A stretch of 64,000 nt of DNA from a virus. This document shows, in pieces, positions 17,831-37,815 of the stretch (the first letter of the stretch is position 1; the number at the start of each line of letters is the position of its first letter). Both the position numbers and the translations under genes were made by a program. The notes under the pieces were generated by a model. That model did not search any database, was not told the DNA's origin, and worked only from the letters and a program-made list of their open reading frames with translations. The stretch covers positions 1 through 64,000 of IMG/VR virus record IMGVR_UViG_3300020027_000006. One strand, written 5' to 3'.

Positions 17831-17879
17831 TTGACAAAGCATATAAAACTATGATATAATGTATGTGGAGGGGTGCGGG
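17831..17879 (+). promoter_or_regulatory. antisense promoter unit 1 (TTGACA..TATAAT + GTGGAGGGGTGCGGG)
   Basis: Member of a 7-copy repeat family. Confidence 0.75.
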
Positions 17880-18209
17880 AAAAATAAAAAAATTTAGTTA
17901 AATTCCTGCGTCCGATAATGAGTACTGACGCAGGGGAAAAGTTACTCTGAAAATTCGTAACCTTTTTGTTTTCAACAGTTTAATTTTTTGACGCATTTTA
18001 TATAAGATTATATAAAAACAGGGATATTTCACTTGCATTTTGCAAGTAACTTGAGGATGTAATGCACGTTATGCCAGCAAACAGCTAAATAGATAAAAAG
18101 ATATGAGAAATATAAAAATAAAACTTTACACACTGCGGAAGTACGTAAAGAGAAGAGAAAAAAGGCAACCAGAACGGCTACCTTTTTATTTTTATTTGGT
18201 GGGTACTAA

Positions 18210-19133
18210 CTATGCGGTCTTCGTCAAAGCAGCAAGTGCCTTAGCATTAGATGCCTTAACCTTGTCAGCCTTAGCATCCTCAGCTTCTTGTGCCTTAGCC
18301 AAAGCCTTTGCCTTTTGCTCATTTGCACGAGTGACTGACTTAGCCTGTGCTTCCTTAGCTTTAGCATCAGCCTTAGCAACTGCATCCAAAGCCTTCTGCT
18401 TTGCCTTTTCCGCTTTTTCTACTTCCTTAAGGTCAGCCTGTCGCGTTGCTTCAATTGCACGAAGCTTTGCCTTTTCAGCCTTAGCGGTTTCACGTTCTGC
18501 TTTTCTACGTGCGGTTTCCTTACCTAACTCAACCGAACGGAGTTCCTTAGCCTTTACTCGCTCGGCTTTACGAGCCGCTTTTGCCTCGTCCGCAATACGC
18601 TGATTTTCAGCATTTACTGCTTCTCGGGCTGACTTTGCTTCTGCCTTTTTCGCCTCGTAAGCTTCGGTCGCATTGACACTCGGATGAAATACGTCGTTGC
18701 TGTCGGTGAATTCTACCGTCATGATAGCATCACCTTCTTTCCACGACTTAGCATCAGGAACCATAGCAGGGATACCTGCATCCTGATATTGACGAGCCTT
18801 TGCTTGTTCCTTACGCATAGCCGCAATCTCAGGACGACTTGTCCATTCTGTTGCCTTTGCGGTCTGGTCTTTCTTACAGATATTGCGGAACTTGCCGTTT
18901 GCAAGCTTCGAGAAATTCGATACACCTTCAACTGTCTTTTCCGGTGTTCCGCAAACCGAGCATTTAACTTCTGCCGTCTTTACTACTTCTGCCTTAACTA
19001 CTGCCTTAACTACTTCTTTCGCCGGAGCCGTTGCTGTAGTTTTGGTCTTCGTTGCCGACTTTGCTGACTTTGCCGACTTCGTTGCCTTAGTAGTTACGTT
19101 ACCTTTACCGTTTGTCTTTTTATTCGTTGCCAT
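18210..19133 (-). CDS. Lys/Ala-rich histone-H1-like / coiled-coil protein with a central CxxC module
   Basis: KATKSAKSAKSATK N-terminus, CSVC...NICKKD, K/A/E-rich C-terminal half; hairpin-like terminator at about 18160-18190. Confidence 0.7.
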   Translation of the reverse strand: MATNKKTNGKGNVTTKATKSAKSAKSATKTKTTATAPAKEVVKAVVKAEVVKTAEVKCSVCGTPEKTVEGVSNFSKLANGKFRNICKKDQTAKATEWTSRPEIAAMRKEQAKARQYQDAGIPAMVPDAKSWKEGDAIMTVEFTDSNDVFHPSVNATEAYEAKKAEAKSAREAVNAENQRIADEAKAARKAERVKAKELRSVELGKETARRKAERETAKAEKAKLRAIEATRQADLKEVEKAEKAKQKALDAVAKADAKAKEAQAKSVTRANEQKAKALAKAQEAEDAKADKVKASNAKALAALTKTA

Positions 19134-19180
19134 AATTTTAACTTTGTCCTTTTTACTGTGTCCCTTTGTTTGACTTAATC

Positions 19181-19342
19181 AGTGTACCAAATGAAAAGCA
19201 TTTTGTCAACATCTTTTTTAACTTTATTAAAATAAAAAAGTTAATTATTTTTGTAAACTTTCCTCTTCACTTTGTCCATTCTTTTTAAGTTACCTTCCTT
19301 CGACAAAAATAAGTGTACCAAATGAAAAGCATTTTGTCAACA
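19181..19342 (-). promoter_or_regulatory. tandem identical promoters (31-bp direct repeat at 19181 and 19312) upstream of the H1-like gene
   Basis: agtgtaccaaatgaaaagcattttgtcaaca occurs twice = TTGACA-17-TACACT on the minus strand. Confidence 0.8.
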
Positions 19343-19384
19343 AAAATATTAGCAGAAAACCCTGAAAATAAAAAAAGTTTTATG

Positions 19385-19432
19385 TTGACAAAAGATTACT
19401 TATATGATATACTATTTGTGGAAGGGTGCGGG
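19385..19432 (+). promoter_or_regulatory. antisense promoter unit 2
   Basis: TTGACA-17-TATACT + ATTTGTGGAAGGGTGCGGG. Confidence 0.8.
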
Positions 19433-19622
19433 ACTTCCAGTTGAGTGATAGATGAAACAGTTGTTGCAGAGACGAAACACAAACACAACAAAGATAAGAT
19501 AATGAGAAGCTATAAAAGGTTGACATACTGAGGAGCAAAACTCTGATAAGAAGTCTTATCAGAGTTTAAGTGGTTTCATGGGTTTCATGGGTTTCATGAA
19601 TTTAATAATTATTAATAATTAG

Positions 19623-21987
19623 TTATACTACGTAGTCATGCCAGTACTTTAGGTCGTGCTCTTCTAATACTCCTAAAGGAAAGTAACCGTCCGTGAACTC
19701 TTCTTCTTTGTATAACATTGAAAAGTCCTCTTTGTAGTAACTCATTGCAAATTTCTGTGCTTGGTCTCTATCACGAGCATTTTTTATAAGAGCATAACCA
19801 TCACGTCGCTTCCTGTCTTTCTGTCCGAAAGTTACAAAATATTTTGGCTTGGTTTTTTGCATACTAAACTTGTGAATTTTTTTGTCGTACTTGCGGACTC
19901 TCCGCAATAGCCTCAGAAATTAATGTAAGCCTTCCCATAAACTTTGTCTTAGCCATTTGATACCCTTGCTCAAAATGTCCGAGTGCTACTGTTAGACTTC
20001 CTATTGTTCCTCGTGCTATAACATTCATTTCGCCAGAGGACGTTTCATAAACTGTGTTATCAAACCTATCCGCACCAAAAGCTGTCTTAAGGTCTAGCCC
20101 AGTACGTGAATTTACATTACAAACAAATACATCCAACATCTTAGATGTATGAATATCGGGAAGATTAATATTATCCATAATCACTCTCTCCTGTTCACTG
20201 ATTATTCACTGATTGTTCGCTTATTATTTCAGTAACTATTGTTAGTCTATTTGTTAAGCTATTATTAGTCTATTATTAAGCTGATTTGTCATATTCTAAA
20301 GTACCTAAACTTTGTGCAAATTCCAGTTCTGTATTCTTATACTTTATAGCATAACTCGCTGTATGTTTATTAGCAAACCAAAGCTCGAACTCTCCCGTAT
20401 TTAAGTTGAAAAGAATGTGCTCTTTATTATTACTCATAGAAGTAACATACTTATAACCAGCTTTCCTCATCGTTTCCCTGTTATCCATAAATTTTATAGT
20501 ACCACAAAGAAAGATTTTTGTCAACAATTAAACTCTAACTACTCTTAGTTTATTATTAAATATTACTTCAGGAAGAGAATCAAATTCTTGAACTGTTAAC
20601 TTTGATTCTCCTCTAAAGTCGTAAGTATCGCCCATTAATATGCAAGCTTCGTCCTCATTAGACGCTTTAACGTAATACTCTTCACTGCCCATATCGTTTC
20701 CGTCAGCTATTATGTATATTTTCATACTCTCTATATTTTTCATTTTCTTTGTCATTTTCTTTGTAACTTCATTACGCAGCTTGTTGATTAGCAATCTTAG
20801 CTAATTCTTTCTTAACACCGACCGCAACTATACCTTTCCAGTTTTTTGAATGGATAAGAAAACTAAGCACCGTATTACGTGCGTTCTCTTCCGTAATCTG
20901 GTCAAGGTTAAACATTTCAGTAACTCGTTCCTTTGCTTCGCCACTAAGATTTGCATAATCTCGTTTGATTGTCCCTGCGAATCTATAAAGTGGCTTATGC
21001 TCTGTATTGTTTTCCATAATATGTAGTGTACCAAAGATTTGCTGCTTTGTCAACAAGAAAACCACACCCTAAATTTTTATTCCTAATGACTTTAGATTCT
21101 TATTAAGAATAGCCTCACCTGCTTTTAGATTAGCCTTTACATCGTTTACTAGGCTTTGTACGGCGTCTAAACCTCCTTTTAAGGTTACTATATAAGAAAG
21201 CGGTCGTTTAACCTTAAAACTACGTACATTATAGGTTGCAGTATTTTTTTCGATAGTGCCATAACAAACACCCGTATTGCTATCACTTGCAATCTTCTTT
21301 TCGAATTTTTCCGTTTCTTTCTTGTTATAGTAAGCATAAAGCAGCTCATCCACTTTTTCGATTAGCGTATCCATTTCGATGAACCCTATAAAATTTGTCG
21401 AAGCTACGTAAATATAAGTCTCTCCGCCACGACCTTCATTTTTTGCTTCGCCAACACGAACACCATTTTCATAAACAGATGCGGAAAAACAAATTGTTTC
21501 CTCACTCATGAATTCCGAAATTTTAATATTTTTTAATGTTATTGACATAAGAGTAATGTAGCATATTATTGCTATTTTGTCAAGATAAAAAATTCTTTTT
21601 ATTTTCTCTATTCTCTATTCTGCTCAGTAATATGTTTGAACTTATCTTCTTATTTACTTTATTGGTTAGTTAGATAGGCAATCACTTCTTATTTAATTTT
21701 TTTTATTTTTTTGTGATTTGCGGATGAGAAACTACTATATCTTTTCTTTTTCCTCTTTCCATGTCTTAGTATAATACCAGAAATGAAGGTTGTCAAGTGC
21801 GGACATTACTTTTCCTACTAATACTAATTAAATCAATAATATCAAGCAGTTCATTTATATCAGCATCTTGTACATCGACACGCTCCTCTAGCTTTGTTAT
21901 CATATTAAACAGGCCAAAGAGCAGTATGAAAATTAGTACAAGTACAACTATCAAAAATATACATACACCCATTAGTAAACTTTCCAT
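19623..21987 (-). CDS. small early-type ORFs (19623-19907, 19864-20184, 20276-20488, 20528-20794, 20772-21017, 21069-21548, 21793-21987)
   Basis: Several have their own promoter with ATG 6-7 nt after the -10 box; starts corrected accordingly. Confidence 0.65.
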
Positions 21988-22044
21988 AGTAAAATTCTAT
22001 CATAAAATAAATATAATGTCAACATAAAAAATAGAAAATAAGTG

Positions 22045-22092
22045 TTGACAAAAGATTATTTATATGATATACTATTTGTGGAGGGGTGCGGG
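22045..22092 (+). promoter_or_regulatory. antisense promoter unit 3
   Basis: TTGACA-17-TATACT + ATTTGTGGAGGGGTGCGGG. Confidence 0.8.
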
Positions 22093-22274
22093 TGGTACTT
22101 TTTTCCCCGGATTCCGGGGAAAAAGTAAATAAATTTATATGTGTGTATACGATTCCAGTTGAGACACACTTGACTAATAATGAGAGAGCCCCTCTCTGAG
22201 TGGGACTACTCTCTGGTGGGTGAGAGGAGACCTGCTCGATTGATGGCAGATAAAGAGAATAGAATAGAAGAGAC

Positions 22275-22315
22275 AAAAAAGCCTGCAAACTTTGCAGGCT
22301 CGTATTTTTTTTTGT
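22275..22315. terminator. bidirectional intrinsic terminator
   Basis: A6-gcctgcaaa-c-tttgcaggc followed by a T-tract. Confidence 0.7.
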
Positions 22316-22322
22316 TTTGTAT

Positions 22323-22821
22323 TTATTCTGTGTTCTTATTTTGCCAAACAAAATAATCTTTTCCGTATATAGCCTTCATAGCTAACTCGAACATAAAATG
22401 TATGTCGTCATTATCATCGTGATAAGTACCATTTGATACTGCCTTAACTCGTTTTTCTGCTAACCGAATTAAAGGATTCCAGTCTATTTTTGGTTGGACT
22501 TTAGGAGATTCACACTTGGGTTCAAATATAAATTCCCCGTCAATAAAATCTATTAATTGTATTTGACGGAAAGTTGTTATTGATTCTTTTGACATATTAA
22601 ATCTCTAAAAAATTTGTTAGCTTGTCGCGGAGTTCATCTAATTCAGACCCGTCAGTTTTGAATCTTGACTCTATATTAAGAGTATCTGCTATATCTTGCT
22701 CCCCTAATACGGCCTGTGCTATCACCATAGTCATAGCAAGTTCTCTACGTGAAAACCCTTTAATACCTACTCCTTCCTCAGTTTTGCTTACCGTTATTTT
22801 TCTTAGCGTCTCTTTGTCCAT
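22323..22821 (-). CDS. two hypothetical ORFs (22323-22595, 22597-22821)
   Basis: Leaderless promoter before 22821. Confidence 0.6.
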
Positions 22822-22853
22822 ATTTTTAATAGTAACACAATTAAAAATATTTG

Positions 22854-23339
22854 TCAAGAGGTTGTTTTAGTAATTTCATATGCGTTGTAAACCCACCCAT
22901 CCTCTAAAAAAGTGTCGTATATTTTACCATCGCGAATACAAAATACATGACCCCATAAATTAAAGTCAGTTGTCATTAATACATAAGTACCGACTGGATG
23001 AGCATCTATAAAACTTTTAATTGTGGTGGTCTTTCCTTTACCCCATGTATTGATAATGGTGGCCTCGTGTCCAAAGAAAGTACGCTCTTCATAGAACGAC
23101 TTCATGGGATGTATATTCCAGCCCCCGAACTTTCTCCAGCCGAAACGCTTTGCTACATACCAAACATCAGCGTAGTCTGCACCTGTGGCATGGACTAATG
23201 TTCTAACTCCGCAATCTCCTATTTTATTTTTTCCCTTTGTTGCGGACACCCCTGATGCCCACCTCCCGCCGTCAGAATAAACAAAATGCTTATACATTAC
23301 ACTAAATTCTGGTGTGTATTTTTTCAGTAACTTCAACAT
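22854..23339 (-). CDS. hypothetical protein with a Cys..His..Asp pattern, possibly papain-like fold
   Basis: GDCGVR...GHVFCIRDGKIYDTF. Confidence 0.55.
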   Translation of the reverse strand: MLKLLKKYTPEFSVMYKHFVYSDGGRWASGVSATKGKNKIGDCGVRTLVHATGADYADVWYVAKRFGWRKFGGWNIHPMKSFYEERTFFGHEATIINTWGKGKTTTIKSFIDAHPVGTYVLMTTDFNLWGHVFCIRDGKIYDTFLEDGWVYNAYEITKTTS

Positions 23340-23380
23340 AGATATAAGTGTAACATATACTTGTTAAATTGTCAAGAGAA

Positions 23381-23428
23381 AAAACCATAAAGCAGAGAAT
23401 AAAAATGAAAAACTCTGCTTTATGGTTT
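23381..23428 (-). terminator. long hairpin terminator
   Basis: aaaccataaagcagag ... ctctgctttatggttt inverted repeat. Confidence 0.7.
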
Positions 23429-24211
23429 AATTGCGGAACGAAAGATTGCACCCCTAACTTTGTCCGCAAGGTCAGGACGAACTGAATCCAAATGATTGAA
23501 CAATGCTTGACCGTATCGCCAGCCTTTTTGGTTAGCTAGTGTAAATGCGAAAAAATAGAATTTGTGTAATGTCATATAGTAAATTAAGTGTAGCAAATGA
23601 AAGACATTTTGTCAACATAAAAACTAATCCGGTTCTTCTACCAATTCAAGAAAACGATTTTCCGTGTCAACTTGTTCGTCGTTAATAGCTAGTAACAGAT
23701 TGCTGAGACACTCTTTAGCATCATTTCCTTGTGCTACTGATTCTGACCCTGTATCTTGATACATTACTCTAAACATTTTATTTTCTCCTATCTCTATCGC
23801 AAAGTAACATGAAAACTGCAAAACATAGAAAAATTATTGCTATGTTTTGTAACAAATCCGTTAATCCAAGTAATGGCATATATTTATTTTCCCCTCATGC
23901 GGTTAAAGAGATAAATTGCATAACATTTGGCACAGTCTCTAACTGGTTTTATAAGACCTCCAATAGCCGTTATAGCTAAACCAATCATCCCTATCTCATC
24001 TGAGCAAATATGTAATACCATAATTTTTTCCAGTTCTACTTTATTTACTGTTTTTTCTTTCTCTCTCTTTACCCGCCTGTTGTGCCTTACACCCTTCAGC
24101 GTAATAAGTTATAAAAGCAACGATTAAAGTTAAAACAACACTACCAACACAAAACACCTTAAATTGCATAACTTAAGTGTAGCAAAATGTTCTCCTTTTG
24201 TCAACATAAAC

Positions 24212-24992
24212 TTAGCAGATTTTATTTTTCATTAAATTCTTAACAGGAAGATGATTATATCCCTGTATATACATAAACGGACTACGTATTCCAAACTTGC
24301 TCAGGTTTCTTAAATAATCGACTTCACGTGCAGCTACAACCTTAAGGTCAGAACTAGCCAAAGCCTTTATTTCTGCATCTATTGAATCCAGAACAGTGAA
24401 TAACTCGTTTGAACTTATTCTAGTTGCCATAGTATTAATCTCCACTAAGTAAATAGTGTATCATATAGTAATCTAATTGTCAAGAATTATTTCCAGTTGA
24501 GTAAGATAAAAAATTATTAGTGGGAAAAGGCGTCCGATAATGAGTCTCTAATGAGTCTCCATCCTCGTCACGAGCAGGTAAACCCGATTCTTCTTCTCCT
24601 CCACAGAGTTATTTGTTTTATTACAGCAGATATTACAGCAGAGAAGAAAAACCTCCAACTTTCGCTGAAGGTTTTATTGTATTATATTGTATTTACCGGT
24701 ATTAAAAGAGGTTAGAGAAAGACGCTTTTGCACGTGAAAACAAAGTAGCCGTTAAAGCCTTCTTTGCAATTTCTTCCCAGTTCGCGGTTTTCTTATACTT
24801 ATTCCAAGTAGTTCTATCAGGATAAGGCATATTGTTAAGTGTTGCAAAAGATTTGACCTCTATTACTAGACCATCGAGGAGTTCCATTTTTCGGTCTAGT
24901 TCTATACTGCCAAATAATCCTTTAAGCGGTGTTTCGGTGAGTGCTTCAAACTTTAGTACCGCTTCTCCAAAATATCCCTTTTTATCTTTCAT
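24212..24992 (-). CDS. hypothetical ORFs (24212-24445, 24702-24992)
   Basis: Each has its own promoter. Confidence 0.6.
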
Positions 24993-25039
24993 ACTTAATA
25001 GTACCAAGTAATTATTACTTTGTCAAGAAATAATAAAAG

Positions 25040-25444
25040 CTACTCAATTCCGCAAATATAAAAAATATAATTTTTATACTCCTCATTAAGTTTAGTCTCA
25101 TGAATCCATTGACGGGCATTAGGAAAATTATAGTCATAGTTTCGGGTATAACCATTAGTTTTTATAATTCCCCAACTATAATTCCCTTTAATAGTTCGAG
25201 TCTTACAATTAACTTCCATGTTTATGTATTTTGGATGAACCATTGATTTATTAAATACAGCGGCCCAAAAAGCATAATGTTTTTCATCAACACGTCTTAT
25301 ACTGGAGCGTTGAATCATCCAAACTGTGACCTCAGAATTTATTCTACTAAAGAGTACATCATAATCTTTAGCATTAGACGACTGACCAAAAGATGCAATA
25401 TTTGCACTCACTACCAAAACAATTAACATTAAAATATGTTTCAT
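25040..25444 (-). CDS. secreted protein, possibly surface-adhesin-E-like fold
   Basis: Signal peptide MKHILMLIVLVVSANIASFG; W..RSSIRR...W...MEVNCKTR pattern. Confidence 0.55.
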   Translation of the reverse strand: MKHILMLIVLVVSANIASFGQSSNAKDYDVLFSRINSEVTVWMIQRSSIRRVDEKHYAFWAAVFNKSMVHPKYINMEVNCKTRTIKGNYSWGIIKTNGYTRNYDYNFPNARQWIHETKLNEEYKNYIFYICGIE

Positions 25445-25550
25445 AATGTAATCATCTTAACAGGAATTAGATAACTTGTCAAGAGTTATCTAATTAAATA
25501 TGAAAAATATTTTTGTTGACAAAAAATATGGTTTTTAGTACACTATATTT

Positions 25551-25670
25551 GGTTAGGAAGTAAATCTCTTGACCGTAATTTAGATAGACCCTTTAATGTG
25601 TGTTTGTTTAAATAATGCTGAGAGGAAGGGTAGCAGTGAACAACCAAGCTGCTACCCTTCCTCTTCTCTT
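25551..25670 (+). ncRNA. candidate small RNA
   Basis: TTGACA-17-TACACT promoter at about 25516-25544, no ORF, strong hairpin agaggaagggtagcag/ctgctacccttcctct. Confidence 0.4.
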
Positions 25671-25674
25671 CAAA

Positions 25675-26084
25675 TTAAATTCCAGCTAATTTTTTTCTAC
25701 GTGCGGAGCGGCAAAGAGCGTGTTCTAAAGTAGAACATATTTTGTTAAAATCCCCTAGCCGAGGGTTTTCCATAGTCTCAACCGCAAGTTCAAATAAATC
25801 GTCAGCCAACCTATCAGCCTGACTAGACAGTGATAATAAAATATAAAAGGGCATGAGATACCTCCTAGAAATTATAGATATTCGTCTAACTCTTCGTCGT
25901 AGCCTAAATCCTCGTCCTCATAGACCCATCCTGAGTCTATGATAACTTCGCCTTTAGAGGTTGATTCCATTTCATTTATTACGCTTGGGTTTTCGAAATG
26001 ATTTTGTATGAGCCAGATTACTCCATCTTCTGAAATTTCGACTGATGTGTATTCGTGGAAAATTTTTCCTGCTTCTGCGGACAT
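25675..26084 (-). CDS. two small ORFs (25675-25854, 59 aa, not in track; 25872-26084, acidic)
   Basis: AGGAGG SD upstream of each. Confidence 0.6.
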
Positions 26085-26666
26085 AAAGAAGTACCTCCTT
26101 TAGCTGATTTCATGGTATCATATATTATTATGATTCGCAAGGGAATTTCAGAAGTAAGTTGGGAGACTGTACGAAGACTTGTCGACAGTGGTGAAAGAAT
26201 AGTTGACATTGAAAAACGATTCAACGGAGCCATAACCGCATCACAAATCTCGTACAAGAAACAACTTTGGAAAAAAGAAGCTTATTGCAAAGGTGATAAC
26301 AAGTATTCAAAGTATCAGACACCTGAATACCGTGCTTGGCGTAAAGCTGTTCTTATCAAAGATGGGTTTAAGTGTATAGTATGTAAACGTGGAAAACCTG
26401 CTGTTAAGGTGCTACAATGTGACCATATAAAAAGTTATTCACAGCACCCCGAATTGCGTTACAACGTAAACAATGGTAGAGTACTCTGTGTATATCATCA
26501 TAAACGTACTTTGAATTACGGATTCAAAGCTCTAAAATGTAATGATGAGGATAACGGGGATACATGGGTTAAACAGGAGCAAATATTATGGAAGCAACAA
26601 CTAATAGAGAAAACAATAAAGAAGAGACTTCAAAAATCATTAAAGAAGCCAATCTCGAAGCGATGA
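26055..26666 (+). CDS. HNH endonuclease (true start probably downstream)
   Basis: YRAWRKAVLIKDGFKCIVC...CDHIK...NNGRVLCVYHH. Confidence 0.85.
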   Translation: MENFSCFCGHKEVPPLADFMVSYIIMIRKGISEVSWETVRRLVDSGERIVDIEKRFNGAITASQISYKKQLWKKEAYCKGDNKYSKYQTPEYRAWRKAVLIKDGFKCIVCKRGKPAVKVLQCDHIKSYSQHPELRYNVNNGRVLCVYHHKRTLNYGFKALKCNDEDNGDTWVKQEQILWKQQLIEKTIKKRLQKSLKKPISKR

Positions 26667-26855
26667 TAACAACTCTAAAAAATCGTGAGGATAGAAAAGT
26701 GCCTCAAAAAATTCGTTCAAAGAAACGTCGCCGTGCTGCTGCTAAGGTTGCTCGTAACTCTCGTAAAACTAATAAGTAAGTAGAATAAACATATCCAATC
26801 ATTTAATAGTTACTAATTTCAATAAAAAAATGAATGAGTTCAATACCTTTATTCT

Positions 26856-27112: not shown

Positions 27113-29455
27113 TTACCCATGTACTGGAGCTGTGTACTTAAACTTTTGCTTTATGTCAATTGAGTGCTTTACACTTACGTAATTCATACAAACTATCATT
27201 CGGTCAAGGTCTTGTCTTGTGGCTTGCGGAAACATGATAGCTCCTGTTGCATTGGATTTTACTTGATACGTACCATCATCACTCTTTGAAACTTCCATAC
27301 CCGAATTAGTTAGCTTCCGGAGCGTGTCTCGTATATCGGAGGTTGCTACAAGAAAGAATGTTTTATTGTTTGTCATATGTTTTATTCTCAACGTATAATT
27401 AGCTTACCAAATGGAAGCTAATTTGTCAATACTTTTATTGGTTCACTAAGCAGTTTGATTAACTTATCTTCAACTTCTTTGAGAAAGTCGTCTTTACCTA
27501 ATACATCAGCCATAGGAGTTCCATAATCACTCCATCCTTCGGATGTTATGTTATTCTCGAATGCTTCTACTATAATTGTTATTATTTCGTTTTTCATTAT
27601 ATTATCTTACCAAATGGAAGCTAATTTGTCAACACTTATTTTCCAGTTGAGGTTATTTTATTTTTATGTACTCATGTGCCCATACTTCTCGTTCTTCCAA
27701 CCCCCATGTGAGCAAGCCACAACTCTTCAGTTTTTCCGCGTCCGATAATGAGTAAATTGAAAATTTAAAAACCGTGCCTGATATTTCTACCAAACACGGT
27801 AAATTTTTTATATCTTTTGCGGACGAAAGAATAAGGTTGCCTTAAATACCCATCATCTCAGACACCGAGAACGAGACCCAACTTTGACCCTTATATCTTT
27901 CGTTTTGCTTTGCTTCTACTACAACGATTATATCTGGTAGTGGTGCTACTACCTTTTCTGCAGTTTGAACCGTGTACTCGCCCTTAACACGTCTTTGTTC
28001 GGTAATGGTGAATAGCTTTACAAAGCCACAGCTAAATTGAATGTCGTATGTATTACCTTTCTTTGGACAGTTAGTTGATTTGTTTCCGCACTTCGTTAAA
28101 AACGGGCAAATTTTACCCTTACGTATTTTTAACGACTTCGTTATGTTGTTCAAGGTTGCCATAGAAGTATATTAGCAAATAATGATTTGTTCATGTTCGT
28201 AATCTTTAATTATCTTACTAAACGGGAGTTAACTTTGTCAAGTAAAAAGTGGGAGTTTTTTACTTTTATTCCTACGAAAGAGGTGCAAACCACGGCTCTC
28301 GGTCAGCGACCTTATTGTAAAAAGTTTCACCATTCGCGGTCAACCGCTTAATGGTGTTCAAATTAATTACTCGATACTTTTCCTCACCTTCTTTCAATAC
28401 TCCGTTTTCATGTTTGGGATTAGATACTTCAAACACGCCAACCATATCACGAGCGGTTAAAGTAGCTTTACGCTTTGCCGTTATTTCCGGCTGTGTGTTT
28501 TTGACATAACGCTTTACTGCAAGCCGTGCAGTCATAGTCCGTTCCGTACCGTCTTGCTTAGTGAACACTACGGTGAAAAACTTGTCACCTACATAGCGTT
28601 TGAATAATTCGATTGTTAAATTGTTAATCAGCATATGTTTTCTTTACGTCCTTTAACGTAAGGATATAATAGCACAAATTTAGAATAGTGTCAAGAGAAA
28701 AGAGAGTTTCTTTATTTTAATTAACTGAAGCTGTGTTATGCAAAACTTCTTTACCCTCGAGCTCCGCAAGTTCTACAGCAAGGAGTCCCTGTTTAGATTT
28801 TGGTACACGAAAGAATTCGCGAGCCTTTTGTGTCGCCTCCCAAAGACTCCCTGCATCAATAATATGTTGTTTTTGATTGTAAAATGCAATGTATTTGTTC
28901 ATATAATTATCTTACCAAACGGGAGTTAACTTGTCAACAATTTTCTTAGATTTTTGAAAAAAGTGGGAGTTTTTTTCTTTAATCCATACGCGATTCTGCA
29001 TAACAGTTAATACCAGAATTTTGCAATACTTTAGCCATTGCACTTGCATGAGCATATTTACGCTCCATGCTTTGTCCGTAATCACCCACCCGAATATCGT
29101 AACCACCCGTGTAGCTTGTTCCTTTACAAATGCCTTGTGCTTTAAGCCATTTAGCAAAGGCACTGGTTGCTGGCTTAACTTTTACCCATGCAAAACCGCA
29201 AACACCGGAATAGATAACTTCCACAGACTTGCTCATGTCTATTTCATTCGAAAATAAATCTTTAGCTTGCCCGACGACCATTGGAGTAGGAGTGCAAGCC
29301 TTAGCAGCTGTTTGTCCTGCAAGCATTGCACGGTCGTATAGTTCTCGAAATGTTTCAGCTTTAGGTTTACTATTAAATCTTTGCGGTACATCCGACTCAA
29401 GTAATTGTTCGTAAGTTAAAATGTCAGGTTCGTTGTTCATAATTTTGTTCCTCAA
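27113..29455 (-). CDS. early-type ORFs (27113-27391, 27842-28162, 28272-28634 SH3-barrel-like, 28717-28902, 28979-29455)
   Basis: Individual promoters; FFTVVFTKQDGTERTM and GVCGFAWV resemble common phage hypothetical proteins. Confidence 0.65.
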
Positions 29456-29516
29456 CTTTAACTATATTAGCATATCTAAATTAGTTTGTCAACATAAAAA
29501 CAATTAAAAATAAGTG

Positions 29517-29564
29517 TTGACAACACAGAATTTATATGATACACTATTTGTGGAGGGGTGCGGG
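29517..29564 (+). promoter_or_regulatory. antisense promoter unit 4
   Basis: TTGACA-17-TACACT + ATTTGTGGAGGGGTGCGGG. Confidence 0.8.
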
Positions 29565-29875
29565 TGTTATATTAAAGAGTACAGTGCGTCCGATAATGAG
29601 TTTATTCTCTACGGTATGAGCAAGTATCTTTGTCCTCCCTTTTTTCTTACTGCTGAAGGAGTGAAAAAGGAAGCAGTTTCCTACTTCCTTTTATATTGCT
29701 TTTGTACTGCTTCTTTATATCTTTTGCGGTTTCGTTGTACCGCTTCGACCGTTGCCAGCCTAATATGATTACTTGTTCGCATATAATTTACATCGAACGC
29801 GGCGTCCAAAGCTGACTTAAGAGTGTTGAAAATCTTACTTTGTTCTATTTCTGCTTCTGCTTATTTATTTATCAT

Positions 29876-30433: not shown

Positions 30434-30764
30434 AAATACTCTCCTCTACTAAATAGATATTAGCAAATAGATTCTGTTTTGTCAACACTTATTTTTATCC
30501 TTTTTGCTTTTCTCTTTATTCGATTCATTTCTTTTTTATAAGATAAAACATACCACTCGTTTTTCTCACCGAAAGAAAGAAATTTCAAAGATTCTTCTTT
30601 ATCAGGTCTTATAAAACTTATTTTAATATGTCTTGTTGAGGTTTCAGGAAAACAGGTAAAAATAAATTGTACTGGCTTAAATTTTATTTTTACACCTTTA
30701 GATATAAAAGATTGTAAATTTTCAACAGATAAAAATGTGCTGTTAAATATACTTACTTCATAAC

Positions 30765-31037
30765 TAAAATAAAAATAAATATACAGAATATCTAAATAAT
30801 TTAAATCAAACCATTCTCCTTTTATTCTTTTATGTTCGAAAATAATATGAAGATTTTTTTCGTCAGAGATTTTATCCTTATGGGATTAGACGACTGTAAA
30901 GCACAAAATCTCGACTTCATCTCACAAGTTCTTCCTATTTTGGTTAGTTTATTTTTACTGTCATAAGCTAGGTAAACGTAGTCATCACCCCTAAATAGTG
31001 AATCGTGAGTTTTAGTATAGCGAGTAATAAGCTTCAT
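30765..31037 (-). pseudogene. frameshifted GIY-YIG T5orf172/MUG113-like gene
   Basis: YVYL..TKIGRT..RFCALQSSNP in one frame; DEKNLHIIFEHKRIKGEWFDL continues in another. Confidence 0.7.
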
Positions 31038-31079
31038 TAAATTAATGCTCCAAAATAAAATATAATGTCGATACTTACT

Positions 31080-31786
31080 TCACCCTTCTTGTTTTATTTT
31101 AGCTTGTTCTTGCTGTGCAATTAGTTCTCTAATGTTTTTAGCGGAACTTACTTGGATGCCTGTTAGATTTACGTTTGTCAGTAAGTCTTTCATCTCACCC
31201 TCAGCACGTACCTTTTCGAGTAGCATAGTAATTCGAAGTTTTTGGAAAGTATCAAAACCAACAGAAAAATTCCAGTAGTCAGTGTCTGCTATTTCGACAA
31301 ACCTGTATAGATGATGCCCTTTAGCGTTATCAAACGCCTCATTTGATTCACGGTAAGCCCCGTAAAGACCGCCGAGTGCGGCATAGTATTCACCCAAACA
31401 ATACATGAATCTTTTTCTGTCTGTTTCATTTTTGAACATAAAATTATATTAGCAGATAAATTCTAATTTGTCAACACTTATTTTAGTCTTAGTTATAGAA
31501 CTTTTCTCACTTTAGTCGTCATAGATGGGACATCCTCTCGAATAATCATACCATCTAAACACTCGTTGTTAGCAGCGATTGAGTAACCTAATCCTTGTGA
31601 ACGAGGATGATTTAGAACCCATGTTTCGACCCAAAACATATTGCGTTCTATTTTAGAAACAGAAGCTCCAACAAATACATTATAAATTCGTCCATTTCCT
31701 TTTTTGAATTTCAAAACAAATGCTTTTCCTCGCGTTTCGATTTTATGATTCAAAAGAATAATTGGTAGTAACTGTTTGTCCATCAT
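31080..31786 (-). CDS. two hypothetical ORFs (31080-31439, 31493-31786)
   Basis: Leaderless promoters. Confidence 0.65.
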
Positions 31787-31844
31787 AAATAGATATTAGC
31801 ATAAATAAATCGCTTTGTCAACACAAAAAAGTAGAAAATAAGTG

Positions 31845-31892
31845 TTGACAAAAGATTATTTATATGATATACTATTTGTGGAGGGGTGCGGG
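31845..31892 (+). promoter_or_regulatory. antisense promoter unit 5
   Basis: Near-identical to unit 7 over more than 100 bp. Confidence 0.8.
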
Positions 31893-32029
31893 AGAAATAA
31901 AAACTGTGAAGAAACAGGAGGCACACCTGCTCGATGGGTGGAGTAAAGAGAGGAGAGAAAAGAGAGAAAAGAGAAGTAAAAAAGCCTCTGATTTCTCAAA
32001 GGCTTTTTGTTCGTAAGTTTTAGTTTGAT

Positions 32030-32779
32030 TTAGACGGTGACCGAATGTACCGTTTGACGTTTGAAGGCTTTGTCAGCAAGCTGTGTTACTTTACGAACCC
32101 AAAACTCAATGTTGACATTTTTCTTTTTGTCAACCGTTACGACTCGAACCAGTTCAGTGTCATTCTTTTGAAATGAACGAACGGTCAAGGTGGTTACAGA
32201 AGTTCGGTTTTCGATTCGATTTCGTTGTTCGCGTGTCATTTTTTCTTGTTCCTTTGCGGATACTCCGCGTCGTACCTTCAGATTGCGACAGGTGGCTCGT
32301 TGCCGTTTGTCAGAAATACATTAGATTTTTTCAACCCTCCATTCTTCCACTTGGACAAGTTTTCCGTTCGATTGTTTAATAACCAAATCAGTTTGGTGAG
32401 GGTATTTTTTTACTTCTACGATAGTAACTTCCGCAAAGCCATATAAAACTTTTTCACCTTTGCGGTAACTCAACTGGTAAAGATTTATTCCGTGAAATTT
32501 CATAGTAACCTCCAACTAAACTTAATAATACCATAAACAAACTGTTTTGTCAAGAGTTATTTTGTGTTAGTCAAGTCTTTTCATATTTGTAAACCATGCG
32601 GACGGATAGGCATAACTAACTTCCGAAATAACTGCAACTGTAATTTTATTGCTATTAATTTCTTCTGTTTTACGTGCAATCACTTTAGCCGTTTCAAGTG
32701 TTCCTATATGGTCTTGTATCCAGTTACCTGAAATAATACCATCTGCTTCGCTATGTACATTAATAAGTGAAAACCTCAT
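32030..32779 (-). CDS. three small ORFs (32030-32239, 32321-32515, 32567-32779)
   Basis: SD-like GGAG/AGGA upstream. Confidence 0.6.
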
Positions 32780-33024
32780 AATTATTCTCCTCGTTTATAT
32801 TTGGACTTGCGACCGACTTTATCGGCTTTACTTGCTCGCTTCCTATCACGAAACACCCGAACGACTCCGCCTGTAGCAGTTATCATATCTTTGATACGCT
32901 CATCTCGTATTCGTATATCGTTAGGATTTATCTTTATACTTTCCATAAACAGATATTAGCAAATAGATTCTGTTTTGTCAACACTTATTTAATAAAATTT
33001 TTATTTATTTTCATTGTTTTTATG

Positions 33025-33072
33025 TTGACAAAAGGTTACTTATATGCTATACTATTTGTGAAAGGGTGCGGG
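33025..33072 (+). promoter_or_regulatory. antisense promoter unit 6
   Basis: TTGACA-17-TATACT + ATTTGTGAAAGGGTGCGGG. Confidence 0.8.
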
Positions 33073-33270
33073 TGTAAAATTATGCTTCCAGTTGAGAAAA
33101 TCCCGTCAAACTGCGACCACGCTACAACTACTATTACTCTTCACTGACATCTTCTCCTCCCAGTGAAGCAAGGGGCCATACGAGCATTATTTCCTCTCCT
33201 AAGAGTTCAGAAGTAAAAAAGCTCCTCCGATTTCTCGAAAGAGCTTGTGTATTTTTTGTGGTTTGCGGAC

Positions 33271-33748
33271 TTACTCAGCTTCTAAGTATTGATAGTTGCC
33301 TGAAATAAAAGCTGAGAGCTGATGTGCAAGATGTTTAACTCCTTGTTCGTCTAAAATAACTGACGCATAATCGTTGCTATCGTTGTTATGAGTTTTGTCT
33401 TTTATATATATCTGAACTGCTCGACCTATACTCGAACCGGCAAAAAACGCGACTAAAGTTATATCCTTTGCATCTTCCTCGTATTTAGGATGTCTGCCTT
33501 GTATTTTTCGTAGTGTTGTTGACATAAGATAATATTAGCATAGAATAATTATTTTGTCAAGATTTATTTTTAAGTAAATTGACTTTTATATCTTGCTCTA
33601 TCAAAACGTCGATAATATCATCATCATCATCGCTCCAGTCTATCACTGACCCATCATCGCCTTGTATCGGAGTTTCCGATTCTAGCAATTCTAGCCGTCG
33701 ATTGAGTTCGTGAAATATAACTTCGTCCGTCTGCTTTTCTTGTGGCAT
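33271..33748 (-). CDS. two hypothetical ORFs (33271-33525, 33557-33748)
   Basis: ORF track; promoter before 33525. Confidence 0.6.
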
Positions 33749-33762
33749 ATTTTTTATTTACT

Positions 33763-34500
33763 TTATTTAGTCTTACCTTTTAGGTAACTGTTGAGTGTCT
33801 TAACACTTTTTGACCCTCTTGATAAACTAAAAACCATAGTCTGAGATTCCCCGTAGGTATGCCAAATTGTTTTGCCGCCCCTTGTTGCGTATAATTCCCT
33901 GATTGTTCGTGGAGTTTTAGTTCCGTCGAACCGTGCAAGCGGGTTTAGGTTAGCCCATGCGGTTTGTACTCGTCCAGATAGCTTACCATCATAGCCTAAA
34001 TCTGCCCAAACTTTATAACCAACTGATTTATCCGACCGTGCATCATTACGTAGAGCAAATGTGGATATATAAGATACTTTAGCTTTTTGTGCGTCCGCGA
34101 CTTGTGTAGAAAATGATTTCGTACCAAGTCCTTTACCTTGTGCGGACGGAGAAAGAAAAAATGCATCGTTGCGGACAGTAAGTTTTCCATCCGCATCTCG
34201 GTACATTGTTCGCGTCATGCCGTCTGATTTGCTTATGTACTTATGAGATATATCAACTTGCAACCGACCATCACGAAGTCCTATTTCGACTTTTGCACCG
34301 GAAAACGCTCCTGCTCCAGCAAGATTAGCAATATCACTTCCTGACATTGGCTTACCAAATAATTTTCTAGCAAAAGCTTGTTCGGCTTTATCATAACCTT
34401 CTATATCAAAAGAGCTACCACCAGAAGATGAAGATAGTGCAGCAGCCGTCGCATTAAACTTGCTGCTTCCTCTACTTGTACTGTTTCCGCGACCGCCCAT
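33763..34500 (-). CDS. GNAT-like acetyltransferase-fold protein
   Basis: FFLSPSAQGKGLGT acetyl-CoA motif A; GYKVWADLGY. Confidence 0.6.
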   Translation of the reverse strand: MGGRGNSTSRGSSKFNATAAALSSSSGGSSFDIEGYDKAEQAFARKLFGKPMSGSDIANLAGAGAFSGAKVEIGLRDGRLQVDISHKYISKSDGMTRTMYRDADGKLTVRNDAFFLSPSAQGKGLGTKSFSTQVADAQKAKVSYISTFALRNDARSDKSVGYKVWADLGYDGKLSGRVQTAWANLNPLARFDGTKTPRTIRELYATRGGKTIWHTYGESQTMVFSLSRGSKSVKTLNSYLKGKTK

Positions 34501-34501
34501 A

Positions 34502-35092
34502 TTAAGCCTCTCTCCAAGTCTTATTAGATTTAATTGAGTAAACTATATCTAATGTAAGTTCGGAACAAGATATTTTTTCTAATATCTGCGGAGCAGTAAA
34601 TTTATTTTTTAATAAGTGTTTAACTTGATATGCTATTTCTTTATTGATTCTTTGATTAGGCTCATGTCCTTTTGGAAAAGGGTTGAAAGCTTTCATTCCT
34701 TTATAAAACCTACGCCCTTTACACTTATTGCCAGTTGCTTTGCGTTCTCGGTCTTTAGCCCTCATATCATCAGAATTGATTTTATGGTCACCTTCAAAAA
34801 GATGTTTAGGATTAACACAATTTCTAATATCACAAGTATGGCATAAAAATAGTTTTTTGTCAATAAATAAATTATTAGCAATTATAAAAGAAACATGATG
34901 TACTCTTTTAGTTTTATCATTTATTGAAACTTGTCCGTATTCTTTTTCATTAGGGTTTACTTTGTTTTTCTTTGTCGCCCCAGTCCACAACCAACAGCCT
35001 TTAATGTTAGCATCTTTAATTACTTTATCAAAAAAATTATTTAATTGTTTTTCCGTAATAAACTTCATTTGCGATTTTGAATGTTTCAACAT
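34502..35092 (-). CDS. HNH homing endonuclease
   Basis: CWLWTGA...YG...RVHHVSF...LCHTCDIRNCVNPKHL. Confidence 0.85.
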   Translation of the reverse strand: MLKHSKSQMKFITEKQLNNFFDKVIKDANIKGCWLWTGATKKNKVNPNEKEYGQVSINDKTKRVHHVSFIIANNLFIDKKLFLCHTCDIRNCVNPKHLFEGDHKINSDDMRAKDRERKATGNKCKGRRFYKGMKAFNPFPKGHEPNQRINKEIAYQVKHLLKNKFTAPQILEKISCSELTLDIVYSIKSNKTWREA

Positions 35093-35909
35093 GTAAACTT
35101 ACTGTATCTTTTTCATTATAACCTCCTGCCATAACAAATACAATAGGGATATTCATTTGTTTCGTAAATTCAAATACAGAACGGTCACGTTTTTGTAGTT
35201 CTAATTTAGTTAAAATTCCACTTCCTAAGCTATCATGAATGTATGCATCCATACCCGCTTGATAAATAATTAAATCAGGTTTAACATCAAGAATAGTTAC
35301 AAAAGATTCAGCCAACGCTGCCTCGTAATCTATCCAACTTCTTACTTTTCTACTCCAACTATGTATTGTTTCCTCGTCTGAAGAAAGTGCCAAACCAAAA
35401 ATACTGAAATTATAAAGGTTATCAAGTTGTCTTGTAAAATCTCTTGTTCCATCACCAAAGTGAATGTCCACATCGAGTACAAAAACACGTTTATCAGGCA
35501 GTTCTTGTGCGACTAAAGCTAATCCGTTAAATGTGCAATAAGCCGACCCCCTGTCATAGGATGAATGATGAAAACCCGCAGCTATACAAGAACTAATTCC
35601 AGTGCTTAAAGCCTGTTCAGCAGCCGGAACCATAGATTCATTAATGGCTAGAACCCCGTCTCTAATTTCTTTTGTCCAGTTCCATCCATTTGAACTTGCT
35701 AAATGTCCTTCTCCTTTAACAAAAGCTTCTACATATTTCGGACTATGCAATTTGGTTAATTTATCAATTATATGTTCATCTGATTTTGATTCTATGATTT
35801 CAGATAGACCGATTTCTTGAACTTCTTTCGAGATTAAAGAAAGTTTTCGCATCGAAAGTGTGGGAGTATCTGCAAAAAATTTAGATTTATAGTATGTAGG
35901 TATCTTCAT
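35037..35909 (-). CDS. Zn-dependent histone deacetylase family protein (HDAC/AcuC/AphA)
   Basis: LHSPKYV, GFHH, CTFNG, DVDIHFGDG, YQAGMD, GGY. Confidence 0.9.
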   Translation of the reverse strand: MKIPTYYKSKFFADTPTLSMRKLSLISKEVQEIGLSEIIESKSDEHIIDKLTKLHSPKYVEAFVKGEGHLASSNGWNWTKEIRDGVLAINESMVPAAEQALSTGISSCIAAGFHHSSYDRGSAYCTFNGLALVAQELPDKRVFVLDVDIHFGDGTRDFTRQLDNLYNFSIFGLALSSDEETIHSWSRKVRSWIDYEAALAESFVTILDVKPDLIIYQAGMDAYIHDSLGSGILTKLELQKRDRSVFEFTKQMNIPIVFVMAGGYNEKDTVSLHVETFKIANEVYYGKTIK

Positions 35910-36114
35910 AATTTATTGTGTAGGCAAATTCCAATTTAAGTATATCAAAGTTTTATTATTTTGTCAACAAATAAATTTAAGAGGTGTACTCCCTCCCAGT
36001 GAGCAGGGAAAAAAGCAAGCCCGTCATCCTCTCTGCTCCAGAGAAAAATTTAGAAGAGAAGTAAAAAGACCCTGCTTGTGCAAGGTCTCTTTCTTTTTCT
36101 AAGGTTTTAAGTGT

Positions 36115-36330
36115 AATAGTTACTAATTTCAATGAAAAACAATGAAATTAACTTTAAACTTTTAACAGTTTTGGGCTAACTAAAAAGCCCTCTACTTCGT
36201 TCGGAAAAACCTCTCCAAGTTTCTTTTTTAGAATATTCAATGCAGCGTTATAGTCAGCATTAACTGAATGAATGTAATACAAGCCATTGCTTTGTTGTGC
36301 TTACTTGCTAATCTGCAGAATTAGTTTTCA
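36115..36330 (-). mobile_element. internally deleted IS200/IS605 remnant: tnpB 3' end plus right end (omega-RNA region)
   Basis: 36270-36154 reads HSVNADYNAALNILKKKLGEVFPNEVEGFLVSPKLLKV*, the TnpB RuvC-III motif; 138 bp identical to 58040-58177. Confidence 0.8.
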
Positions 36331-36456
36331 GTCAATTGGTTTAAGTTAACGCATAATGGTTTCCTCCCGACTTTAAGTCTTTACCAATCTCGAATACTTA
36401 CCTTCGACAATTAAAGTGTAGCAAACTAGAACTTGTTTGTCAATACAAAAAATATT

Positions 36457-37526
36457 TTATTTTTCAATTGCCGTGAAAAATTTATTGCCCTTACTTCGGA
36501 CGGGTTCAACGGTCATTGAATCGAATCCCATTTCATCACCAAGAATAGACCATGCATGGTTTGCGTTTTCTTGAGGAGATGAAGGAGATGTGCCACCTAC
36601 GACCAAATAAGGAACAGACCTGCTTGCATCCAAAAGTTTCTGCAATTGTTCATCAGTTAATTCAAATTCTTTTCTCATTGTCTTTCTCCAATCAATTTAA
36701 TTTGTTCTAGGCTCCGTTTTGTCGGACATCAATCAATTTGTTTATGGTTCAACACTAAATCTGAAATTGATTGACATTAATAGTCAAGCATAGGCTCCGG
36801 ACTGTTGCCATATCCCGTAAACCCTGCATATTTATAATTTGTATTTCATAACACTTATTTTTACCGTTCGCGGACTACCTTATATATGCCGCCTTTGCGT
36901 ATAAATGCCCTATAACCTCTTTTTATCCAGTTTAGGAGTCCTTACTTACACTTTCCGCATAATTCATTCCCCAAAGGATATAATTAGCTAATTCAAATCT
37001 AGTAACTTCATACTTAGATTCTACATTACCATTGAAAATCTTATCCGCTTTTTGAAATGCTACTTCGGTTAAATCTTTGGCAGGTAACGCATCTAACTTA
37101 CCTCTTAAGAAACCTCTCCAATAAGCCATTTCATAGATTCGGACAAACGTATCCTCCAAGTAGGTTGGTCGTCTAGGTTGGTCGTCCTTTACCGCCCAAT
37201 CAGCCACAGCATCTGAAATTATTGAATTCATTTCTATCTTATTCATATTAAAATATTACCATAAAAAATTTAGTTTGTCAATAAGAGTTATCTACACTTA
37301 ATTTTTCAAATGCTTGCCACCCTTTAATGACTATTAAAATGCTTGCCGATATAATAGCTGTATAGCCTAAAATTAATCGAATAACGTCCTCAACTACTAC
37401 TAACTGGAAAACCTCGTCTAAGACGTTTGACATCGTAATAAAAGCCATTACAACTATAAAGGACAAGACCATTATAGCTATATCGAACTCCGCACCATTG
37501 AAATATTTTTTCATAAGTAACCTCAA
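36457..37526 (-). CDS. hypothetical ORFs (36457-36678, 36932-37246, 37278-37526 membrane)
   Basis: ORF track; promoters or SD sites. Confidence 0.6.
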
Positions 37527-37583
37527 CTGCTACTATACCAAGTTTTTATAATTTTGTCAACATAAAAAAGTAGAAAATAAGTG

Positions 37584-37631
37584 TTGACAAGTTAGAATTT
37601 ATATGATATACTATTTGTGGAGGGGTGCGGG
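37584..37631 (+). promoter_or_regulatory. antisense promoter unit 7
   Basis: TTGACA-17-TATACT + ATTTGTGGAGGGGTGCGGG. Confidence 0.8.
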
Positions 37632-37815
37632 AGAGATAAAAAACTGTGAAGAAACAGGAGGAGGCACATATACCTGCTCGATGGGTGGAGTAAAGAGAGG
37701 AGAAGAGAAGCAGTAAAAAAGCAGCTAAATGTTTCCACTTAGCTGCAACTGTATTTTATCGTGTTGGTTTTATTTAATCGCTGACAAGTACGCCCTTCAT
37801 TTTTTTTTGCTCCTT

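Follow-up and report, generated by a model that had tools for sequence, protein, structure and literature searches.

What does a phage gain from strong promoters that are directed against its genes and have no open reading frame (ORF) behind them? The question is raised by an uncultured soil phage, IMG/VR virus record IMGVR_UViG_3300020027_000006. We analysed its positions 1 to 64,000, the first 64 kb of a 75-kb record estimated to be about 56% complete; this whole stretch is referred to as the window. Small genes occupy the minus strand from about 43 kb down to position 1, and the plus strand from 43.7 kb on carries the large terminase gene, which contains inteins, and structural genes. The GC content of the window is about 35%, and its promoters belong to the Gram-positive sigma-A type, their -10 elements being TG-extended. 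An initial annotation had described seven plus-strand promoters scattered among the minus-strand genes, each launching a non-coding transcript with a constant G-rich 5' end. The analysis presented here identifies these seven units as copies of a real, conserved and so far undescribed promoter-linked element of an uncultured phage clade.

The seven sites of the initial annotation correspond to the first base of each TTGACA hexamer (Table 1). A scan of the window with the pattern TGTTGACA-N17-TAYAMT, at most one mismatch being allowed, returned 24 matches where 0.2 were expected. These included six of the seven sites; in the remaining one, at 17831, an 18-bp spacer is followed by TATAAT. The nonamer GGGTGCGGG is present in exactly seven copies (17871, 19424, 22084, 29556, 31884, 33064 and 37623), every time on the plus strand and every time 11 bases past a near-consensus promoter. 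As shuffled sequence gave 1.5 matches even with one mismatch permitted, the seven promoters with their G-rich starts are regarded as real. When aligned, the units are identical from the promoter to GTG-NNN-GGGTGCGGG, beyond which only local motifs agree. All seven have a promoter followed by ATTT-GTG-NNN-GGGTGCGGG (hereafter the G-box; unit 1 differs in the discriminator). The claim that most sites are back-to-back with a gene promoter proved true of the entire set, a minus-strand promoter being present behind seven of seven units. Every unit is flanked by the upstream gene's terminator on one side and the next gene's promoter on the other, and is directed at the terminator. Likewise, the absence of a credible ORF was confirmed in a frame test, in which the GTG frame did not stand out from the two alternatives in openness (median values of 20, 17 and 15 codons; no bias). 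The only strong plus-strand promoter that lacks the box (25514) drives an HNH gene on the same strand, so the G-box marks ORF-less antisense promoters and not any promoter of that strand.

Table 1. Antisense G-box units, their partner promoters and related intergenic features of the window (motifs A, B and C are described in the text; gaps are distances between the two -35 hexamers).
Feature	Positions	Strand	Description
Unit 1	17831-17972	+	promoter 17831-17860 (TTGACA, 18 bp, TATAAT); G-box 17865-17879; discriminator GTATGTG; motif B at 17907; own hairpin and T-run ending near 17972
Partner of unit 1	17726-17756	-	gene-direction promoter; gap 76 bp
Unit 2	19385-19567	+	promoter 19385-19413; G-box 19418-19432, triplet GAA; motif A at 19435; hairpin 19538-19567
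Partner of unit 2	19312-19342	-	gene-direction promoter; gap 44 bp
Unit 3	22045-22312	+	promoter 22045-22073; G-box 22078-22092; motif A at 22153; motif C variant CTGCTCGAT at 22232; two-sided terminator 22280-22300, then T-run
Partner of unit 3	21994-22024	-	gene-direction promoter; gap 22 bp; leaderless, ATG 6 nt past -10
Unit 4	29517-29692	+	promoter 29517-29545; G-box 29550-29564; motif B at 29585; hairpin 29665-29692
Partner of unit 4	29464-29492	-	gene-direction promoter; gap 24 bp
Unit 5	31845-32008	+	promoter 31845-31873; G-box 31878-31892; motif C at 31927; tract rich in purines; two-sided terminator 31979-32008; paralogue of unit 7 (89% over 65 nt)
Partner of unit 5	31793-31821	-	gene-direction promoter; gap 23 bp; leaderless
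Unit 6	33025-33246	+	promoter 33025-33053; G-box 33058-33072, triplet AAA; motif A at 33086; terminator 33219-33246
Partner of unit 6	32953-32981	-	gene-direction promoter; gap 43 bp; leaderless
Unit 7	37584-37746	+	promoter 37584-37612; G-box 37617-37631; motif C at 37674; hairpin 37721-37746
Partner of unit 7	37532-37562	-	gene-direction promoter; gap 23 bp
Control promoter without G-box	25514-25544	+	upstream of HNH endonuclease gene 26055-26666 (+)
Intergenic stretch without plus-strand promoter or G-box	24486-24675	+	motif A at 24491; motif B at 24530; two-sided terminator 24648-24675
Intergenic stretch without G-box promoter	27633-27800	+	motif A at 27641; motif B at 27738; terminator 27771-27800

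Relatives were collected by scanning metagenomes with a 22-mer spanning the end of the -10 element and the box. This yielded 14 contigs from several soil and other metagenomes, ranging from 36 to 50% GC and differing in the bodies of the units, the promoter spacers and the flanking genes. The G-box is identical across this range of base composition while spacers and bodies have wholly diverged. A promoter scan of the related contigs that ignored the box recovered extra copies with the triplets GCG, ACG or CGG and the same nine bases; the invariance of the box is therefore not an artefact of the search pattern. In the window and the 14 contigs together, 93 distinct strong promoters were counted, of which 28 have the G-box and 65 do not. 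G-box promoters are antisense to the local genes in 28 of 28 cases, and those of the 65 others that lie on listed loci are all directed with the genes. Units are closely spaced, with four in 5.9 kb (contig L054), four in 5.1 kb (L044) and seven in 20 kb of the window, i.e. one per 1.2-3 kb overall. Searching a genome collection with the same 22-mer gave no match, and when IMG/VR was scanned with four DNA patterns and a protein profile, the outcome was chance matches or none.

The promoter of the cassette is made up of phased A-tracts upstream, TTGACA, a spacer of 17-18 bp and TATACT with a TG extension. Conservation is almost complete between a point about 5 bp upstream of the TG-extended -10 element and the last G of the box, with an information content of 1.6-1.9 bits per position within this block (2.0 uncorrected), and it falls to 0.0-0.3 bits from the first base past the box onward. 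The discriminator reads ATTTGTG in 26 of the 28 copies, whereas the same positions of gene promoters hold only 0.2-0.9 bits. By analogy with the ATG of leaderless genes, transcription probably starts at the last base of GTG, which is the seventh past the -10 element. The RNA would then begin with G-NNN-GGGUGCGGG, and the conserved block would reach from about -20 to +13. RNA polymerase contacts and melts a stretch covering this block while it makes the first dozen bases. The selected block straddles the start site and lies within the initial-transcription contacts of the polymerase. Selection thus seems to act on the promoter and the start, and not on the RNA made. The invariant nonamer reads GGG-TGC-GGG (often within GGGG-TGC-GGGG) on the non-template strand, at +5 to +13, and several units repeat the box hexamer in part or in full, GGGGTGC occurring three times in the unit at 5112 of L054. 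The triplet before the nonamer is GCG, ACG, CGG, AAG, GAA or AAA in 10 of the 28 copies. As it is this triplet that completes GGAGG, a decoy for ribosomes or CsrA, one of the functions considered in the initial annotation, is ruled out as a general function, and the same holds for a Shine-Dalgarno-like stabiliser at the 5' end that would be complementary to the 16S 3' end; the likeness to a Shine-Dalgarno sequence is not conserved in relatives, the invariant part being GGGTGCGGG.

Leaderless genes are frequent in the material, an ATG being located 6-9 nt past the -10 element in 28 of the 65 strong gene promoters (about 43%). Examples are the partners of units 3, 5 and 6, and the pattern is likewise seen on L043-L056. 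A large share of the early mRNAs of this clade would accordingly lack a leader, an unusual trait in phages whose promoters are of the Gram-positive type and which have strong Shine-Dalgarno sites elsewhere.

The explanation that we tentatively favour, with less than even confidence, is that the units are a clade-specific regulatory cassette whose selected part is a cis DNA element read by the host RNA polymerase. The element would fuse a near-consensus promoter to the fixed discriminator ATTTGTG and a fixed start (G, three free bases, GGGTGCGGG). Polymerase would load very efficiently, and the invariant G-rich start would then govern promoter escape. Specifically, the start region is predicted to induce an elemental pause with the RNA 3' end at about +10, at the point of promoter escape. 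The consensus elements of the promoter by themselves favour tight binding. A promoter-proximal complex of long lifetime would be expected as the outcome, with no transcripts other than short ones of arbitrary sequence, which would run into the two-sided terminator of the upstream gene. In cis, a unit might block or collide with read-through polymerases; alternatively, it might be coupled to its partner promoter via shared curved A-tract DNA or local supercoiling. An action on the neighbours is suggested because the unit is always placed between the upstream terminator and the next promoter and faces the terminator. Transcription from the units, the pause and the insulating or coupling role are all predictions. 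One side effect was observed directly: the double-promoter cassette of 80-230 bp makes up the sole DNA-level homology between several related contigs, and so offers crossover points at which gene cassettes can be shuffled. With the C of TGC taken as -1, the block agrees with the extended elemental pause consensus G-11G-10T-3G-2Y-1G+1, which was derived from E. coli (PMC6062546), at five of six positions (G-10, T-3, G-2, Y-1 and G+1); this is a match of sequence only. Also in favour of a cis element are the strict association of the box with antisense promoters, the limits of conservation, the constancy of the box in contigs of 36-50% GC, bodies that behave as neutral sequence, the quantised distance to the partner promoter (see below) and the confinement of nucleotide similarity between the JRYL01 contigs to the cassette.

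Six points weigh against such a cis element: (i) the pause consensus leaves the invariance of all nine bases and the G-tracts unexplained; (ii) units are present at only seven of about 25 intergenic promoter regions of the window, so insulation is no general need; (iii) leaderless genes are not enriched among the partner promoters (8 of 22, compared with 43% overall), nor are partner -10 elements weaker (p = 0.5), and because the leaderless-partner and weak-partner versions failed the model stays general; (iv) tandem repeats of the box hexamer fit a binding site or a G-quadruplex at least as well; (v) the start site is deduced from the geometry of the -10 distance; (vi) the helical phasing of the back-to-back promoters may reflect no more than each promoter's own need for phased upstream A-tracts. 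As to the last point, the gaps between the -35 hexamers fall at 22-24, 33, 43-45, 53-54, 75-77 and 97 bp, with an outlier at 135 bp, and have a period of 10.25-10.5 bp (R = 0.83, n = 22); p is about 0.01-0.03 if each class is counted once. The spacers between these promoters consist of phased A/T tracts, some of them made of 10-11 bp repeats. In Bacillus phages, the action of phased curved DNA upstream of promoters is rotation-dependent, which would be enough by itself to explain quantised gaps.

Very strong phage early promoters with conserved sequence beyond the -35 and -10 elements are not without precedent. In phage T5 a conserved transcribed region of early promoters affects late initiation steps, and in Bacillus phage SP82 the same steps are affected by phased upstream A-tracts (curved DNA). 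Those promoters drive genes, whereas the units described here have no ORF and run antisense, with a transcribed element that is invariant and not just loosely conserved.

The sequence downstream of the box (the body) was analysed for signs of a functional RNA. Bodies are about 70-240 nt long across the family and 109-233 nt in the window, measured to the first strong hairpin; the shortest units consist of the box, 25-40 nt and a hairpin (L051; L054 at 684). Described initially as often purine-rich, the downstream stretches are so in three units (purine fraction 0.64-0.69) but not in the others (0.54-0.55 in two, 0.44-0.45 in two; regional plus-strand average, 0.46). The hairpins at which units had been said to end (22280-22300, 31979-32008) do exist, but they are two-sided terminators of the upstream minus-strand genes. 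Gene terminators are two-sided across the whole early region, with or without a facing unit, and those that face units are no more two-sided than others. Many units have no convincing plus-strand terminator, and several lack a plus-strand T-run. A comparison with Rfam, proposed in the initial annotation as a check, matched no family: in the 64 kb there was no match at the gathering score, and at an E-value threshold there were only chance-level matches, none of them on the plus strand of a unit. No sites complementary to the bodies were found elsewhere in the 75-kb genome, and a guide-RNA reading is weakened for want of such targets. Predicted folds gave no sign that the real bodies pair with the box more, or less, than shuffled ones do (Stouffer Z -0.36 and +0.57), and the aligned copies of motif C (see below), checked as a hairpin, displayed no covariation or compensatory change. 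The bodies do not look like a product under selection; they behave as neutral sequence. Of the original picture of RNAs with a constant handle and a variable body, there remains a real ORF-less family with a constant start, a variable body and no Rfam match. Its interpretation as functional small RNA is possible but not favoured, as there are no phage targets, the handle is no more accessible than expected from shuffling and conservation begins upstream of the start.

Three short motifs recur in the bodies in varying order: A (TTCCAGTTGAG), B (GCGTCCGATAATGAG) and C (GCTGC-N7-GTGG). Motif A is found at 19435, 22153, 24491, 27641 and 33086 on the plus strand, at 17434 on the minus strand and also on L043, L045 and L046; in relatives it may end in ...TG. 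A possible resemblance of motif A to part of a tRNA-His anticodon arm is given no weight here. Two copies are located 7-8 bp upstream of the -35 hexamer of a gene promoter, and other copies lie inside antisense units. Motif B is an exact repeat of 15-17 nt with six copies (303, 17907, 24530, 27738 and 29585 on the plus strand, 40696 on the minus strand), and it is kept with one change in relatives of 38-44% GC (L043, L050). Motifs A and B seem to be separate elements because they are present in two intergenic regions without an antisense promoter, and on the other strand.

The main rival explanation, which we consider possible but rather doubtful, invokes abundant short RNAs that carry the G-box as a 5' tag (the first 13 nt) and act in trans. 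These 13 nt would be the target of a conserved protein, of host or phage origin, or the pairing site for a conserved host RNA, so that the RNA serves as a decoy, a sponge or a handle; no role would fall to the body, and the RNA would end by borrowing the two-sided terminator of the neighbour. Such RNAs would be consistent with the sharp stop of conservation right after the box, the very strong promoters in many copies, the minimal units made of box, short spacer and hairpin, and the repetition of the box hexamer, which reaches three copies in L054. Motif A, too, has the same RNA sense in the plus-strand copies and in one minus-strand transcript region (17434). However, the conserved stretch begins upstream of the start and takes in the discriminator and sequence beyond the -10 element, none of which an RNA element needs, and the box is not kept single-stranded in predicted folds. 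No perfect complement of the box occurs in the phage outside the units, nor in two Clostridia genomes reached via a tRNA-synthetase homologue, the latter being weak evidence, as these genomes need not be those of the host. In addition, the many units without a convincing plus-strand terminator would produce ragged 3' ends, and a co-varying partner is missing, the box being identical in phages of 36-50% GC.

At a comparable, equally doubtful level we place a broader proposal, namely that the G-box is a dedicated signal read by a conserved protein, either as the 5' tag of a new class of small RNAs or as an ops-like loading site at which polymerase is paused at +10. Dozens of copies per genome could then act together, for instance by sequestering a host factor; alternatively, polymerases could be switched to transcribe backwards through the early region towards the late genes, by which early genes would be turned off. 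Phage lambda PR', with its short 6S transcript and Q, is a well-known promoter-proximal pause and loading system, and the ops site of RfaH has been called an exemplar of the consensus pause (PMC5995543). The units resemble both in having an invariant G-rich non-template element at a fixed distance from a strong constitutive promoter and a match to the consensus pause, and they resemble lambda PR' in that transcripts would be short and terminated unless something intervenes. They differ in that there is no downstream operon to antiterminate, the units facing backwards into early genes, in that the predicted pause at +10 precedes or coincides with promoter escape, and in the presence of dozens of copies instead of one. 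No homologue of RfaH, LoaP, NusG or Q was detected among 20 window proteins scanned, a set covering a minority of the small early proteins of a record about 56% complete.

It is unlikely that the box is primarily a structure-forming element, i.e. a quadruplex or R-loop that stalls later rounds of transcription, anchors the RNA or primes DNA synthesis. A hybrid DNA:RNA G-quadruplex needs a minimum of two G-tracts in the non-template strand (PMC3664831), and at mitochondrial CSB II a hybrid quadruplex stops transcription and yields primers (PMC4176368). The invariant GGG-TGC-GGG at +5 to +13 provides at least two tracts of at least three G on that strand just past the start. The four G-tracts of the L054 unit at 5112 and the three bodies with 64-69% purine point in the same direction. 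In the known cases, however, the loops vary freely, while here the TGC loop and the discriminator, neither of them a quadruplex requirement, are also invariant, and purine-rich bodies are not a consistent feature. Literature searches turned up no bacterial or phage G-quadruplex element tied to a promoter at single-base spacing. As for the primer transcripts of the initial annotation, origins of the T4 oriF and oriG type, in which a promoter precedes an unwinding element and an R-loop primes replication, are one or few sites per genome; units recurring every 1.2-3 kb with unrelated downstream sequence, and up to four within 5-6 kb, are implausible as origins, which makes R-loop origins of the T4 type unlikely. 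A better origin candidate is the repeat-rich, ORF-poor stretch at 40450-42300.

Somewhat less credit still is given to the possibility that the units are cis-antisense regulators of the upstream gene, the plus-strand transcript pairing with the 3' end or read-through of the convergent early mRNA and directing its processing or decay. Units are always convergent with the upstream gene and share a terminator hairpin with it, and transcripts of those without a plus-strand T-run could extend antisense into the gene. With a working terminator, on the other hand, the overlap would be confined to the hairpin, the stop codons of the upstream genes lying 20-345 nt past the unit end; these genes have neither a common family nor a toxin-like character, and the invariant box would be left unexplained. 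Lambda oop and the type I antitoxin RNAs of Bacillus prophages are short non-coding RNAs with their own promoter, convergent with a neighbour and ending at a shared or two-sided terminator. They overlap the coding 3' end of their target and have no common 5' sequence, whereas the overlap here stops at the hairpin unless there is read-through, and all copies share the first 13 nt.

We regard it as improbable that the units are mainly recombination boxes, i.e. cassettes kept for modular exchange of early genes between co-infecting relatives, in which the antisense promoter has no further role. Seven JRYL01 contigs (L044, L047, L048, L049, L051, L054 and L055) were compared by blastn, and matches of at least 80 nt were considered. 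The double-promoter cassette (80-230 bp, 75-97% identity) was the only nucleotide homology among them; flanking genes had no similarity at the nucleotide level, and homologous genes are found on different sides of units in different contigs. A precedent is provided by the promoter-early stem-loops (PeSLs) of T4-type phages, which are composite terminator/promoter cassettes (PMC2839356, PMC4122927). Like PeSLs, the cassette is a short conserved intergenic sequence with an early promoter and a terminator hairpin, is repeated many times in a variable early region and constitutes the only homology between otherwise unrelated flanking genes. Unlike the PeSL promoter, which is directed with the genes, the G-box promoter is antisense in all 28 copies with no ORF behind it, so the best-conserved part is a second, antisense promoter with an invariant transcribed 13-mer. 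The phage is, moreover, unrelated to T4-like phages, and its host polymerase is of the Gram-positive type. Recombination needs identity but no particular sequence, and it explains neither the same nonamer at the same distance from the -10 element while the spacer drifts nor the strict antisense orientation. In sum, the element behaves in the genome much as PeSLs do and has an anatomy resembling that of pause or loading sites, but answers to the full definition of neither.

Very improbable, finally, are leaderless micro-ORFs read from GTG (Met-X-Gly-Cys-Gly plus a variable tail): the many leaderless mRNAs of the clade, the restriction of variation in the constant part to the second 'codon' and an in-frame Cys-x-x-Cys-Gly in a few units would fit, but this peptide reading was rejected on account of the wrong -10 spacing (GTG at 5 nt, compared with 7-8 nt for the ATG of real leaderless genes), the absence of frame bias (motif A falls in three different frames) and the lack of any synonymous change in GGG TGC GGG in 28 copies.

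Strong ORF-less antisense promoters with an identical start across differing base composition are outside the standard picture of phage early transcription. Should the element hold or pause polymerase, dense gene cassettes would have in it a compact natural device for insulation or coupling, and it would provide a clean model of how the initial transcribed sequence controls escape of Gram-positive-type polymerases. Should the decisive part instead be the 13-nt end of the RNA, the units would constitute a new family of small RNAs in phages. Either way, the cassette marks the joints at which the clade appears to shuffle its early genes, and it is a simple sequence signature for finding clade members in metagenomes.

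The virus itself is remote from cultured phages. DNA searches of an isolate phage collection, in both near and distant modes, gave no match to the window. The large terminase protein had distant matches only, with an identity of at most 45% to any isolate, on which the separation from T4-like phages is based. Its gene (44448-49184) is split by intein and homing-endonuclease domains and encodes 1578 amino acids in total. Free-standing HNH genes are located at 26055-26666, 34502-35092, 54124-54990 and 55717-56649. Two aminoacyl-tRNA synthetase homologues are encoded on the minus strand (5799-6956 and 9652-10590), one of the class II Asp/Lys/Asn type and the other of the class I Trp/Tyr type; the second has its closest cellular relatives in Tissierellales and cyanobacteria (about 45% identity). 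Scans of the record for tRNA and tmRNA genes found none. A basic protein of 54 amino acids (32782-32946, minus strand) is kept at 65-85% identity in a dozen metagenome proteins. Its sequence is also recorded on a contig of 250,550 nt, from which the full genome may be far larger than the 75-kb record.

Two further non-coding regions were noted. The 1.9-kb stretch at 40450-42300, which separates the early genes from the late block, is full of short direct repeats, including a 14-16 nt unit present about five times near 41080-41270, a 17-nt unit present twice near 42150-42190 and several occurrences of GTCCGCA; it is a candidate replication origin or master regulatory region. At 17380-17420 on the minus strand, downstream of the promoter at 17756, there is an apparently non-coding run of about ten ATT repeats, which adjoins the minus-strand copy of motif A.

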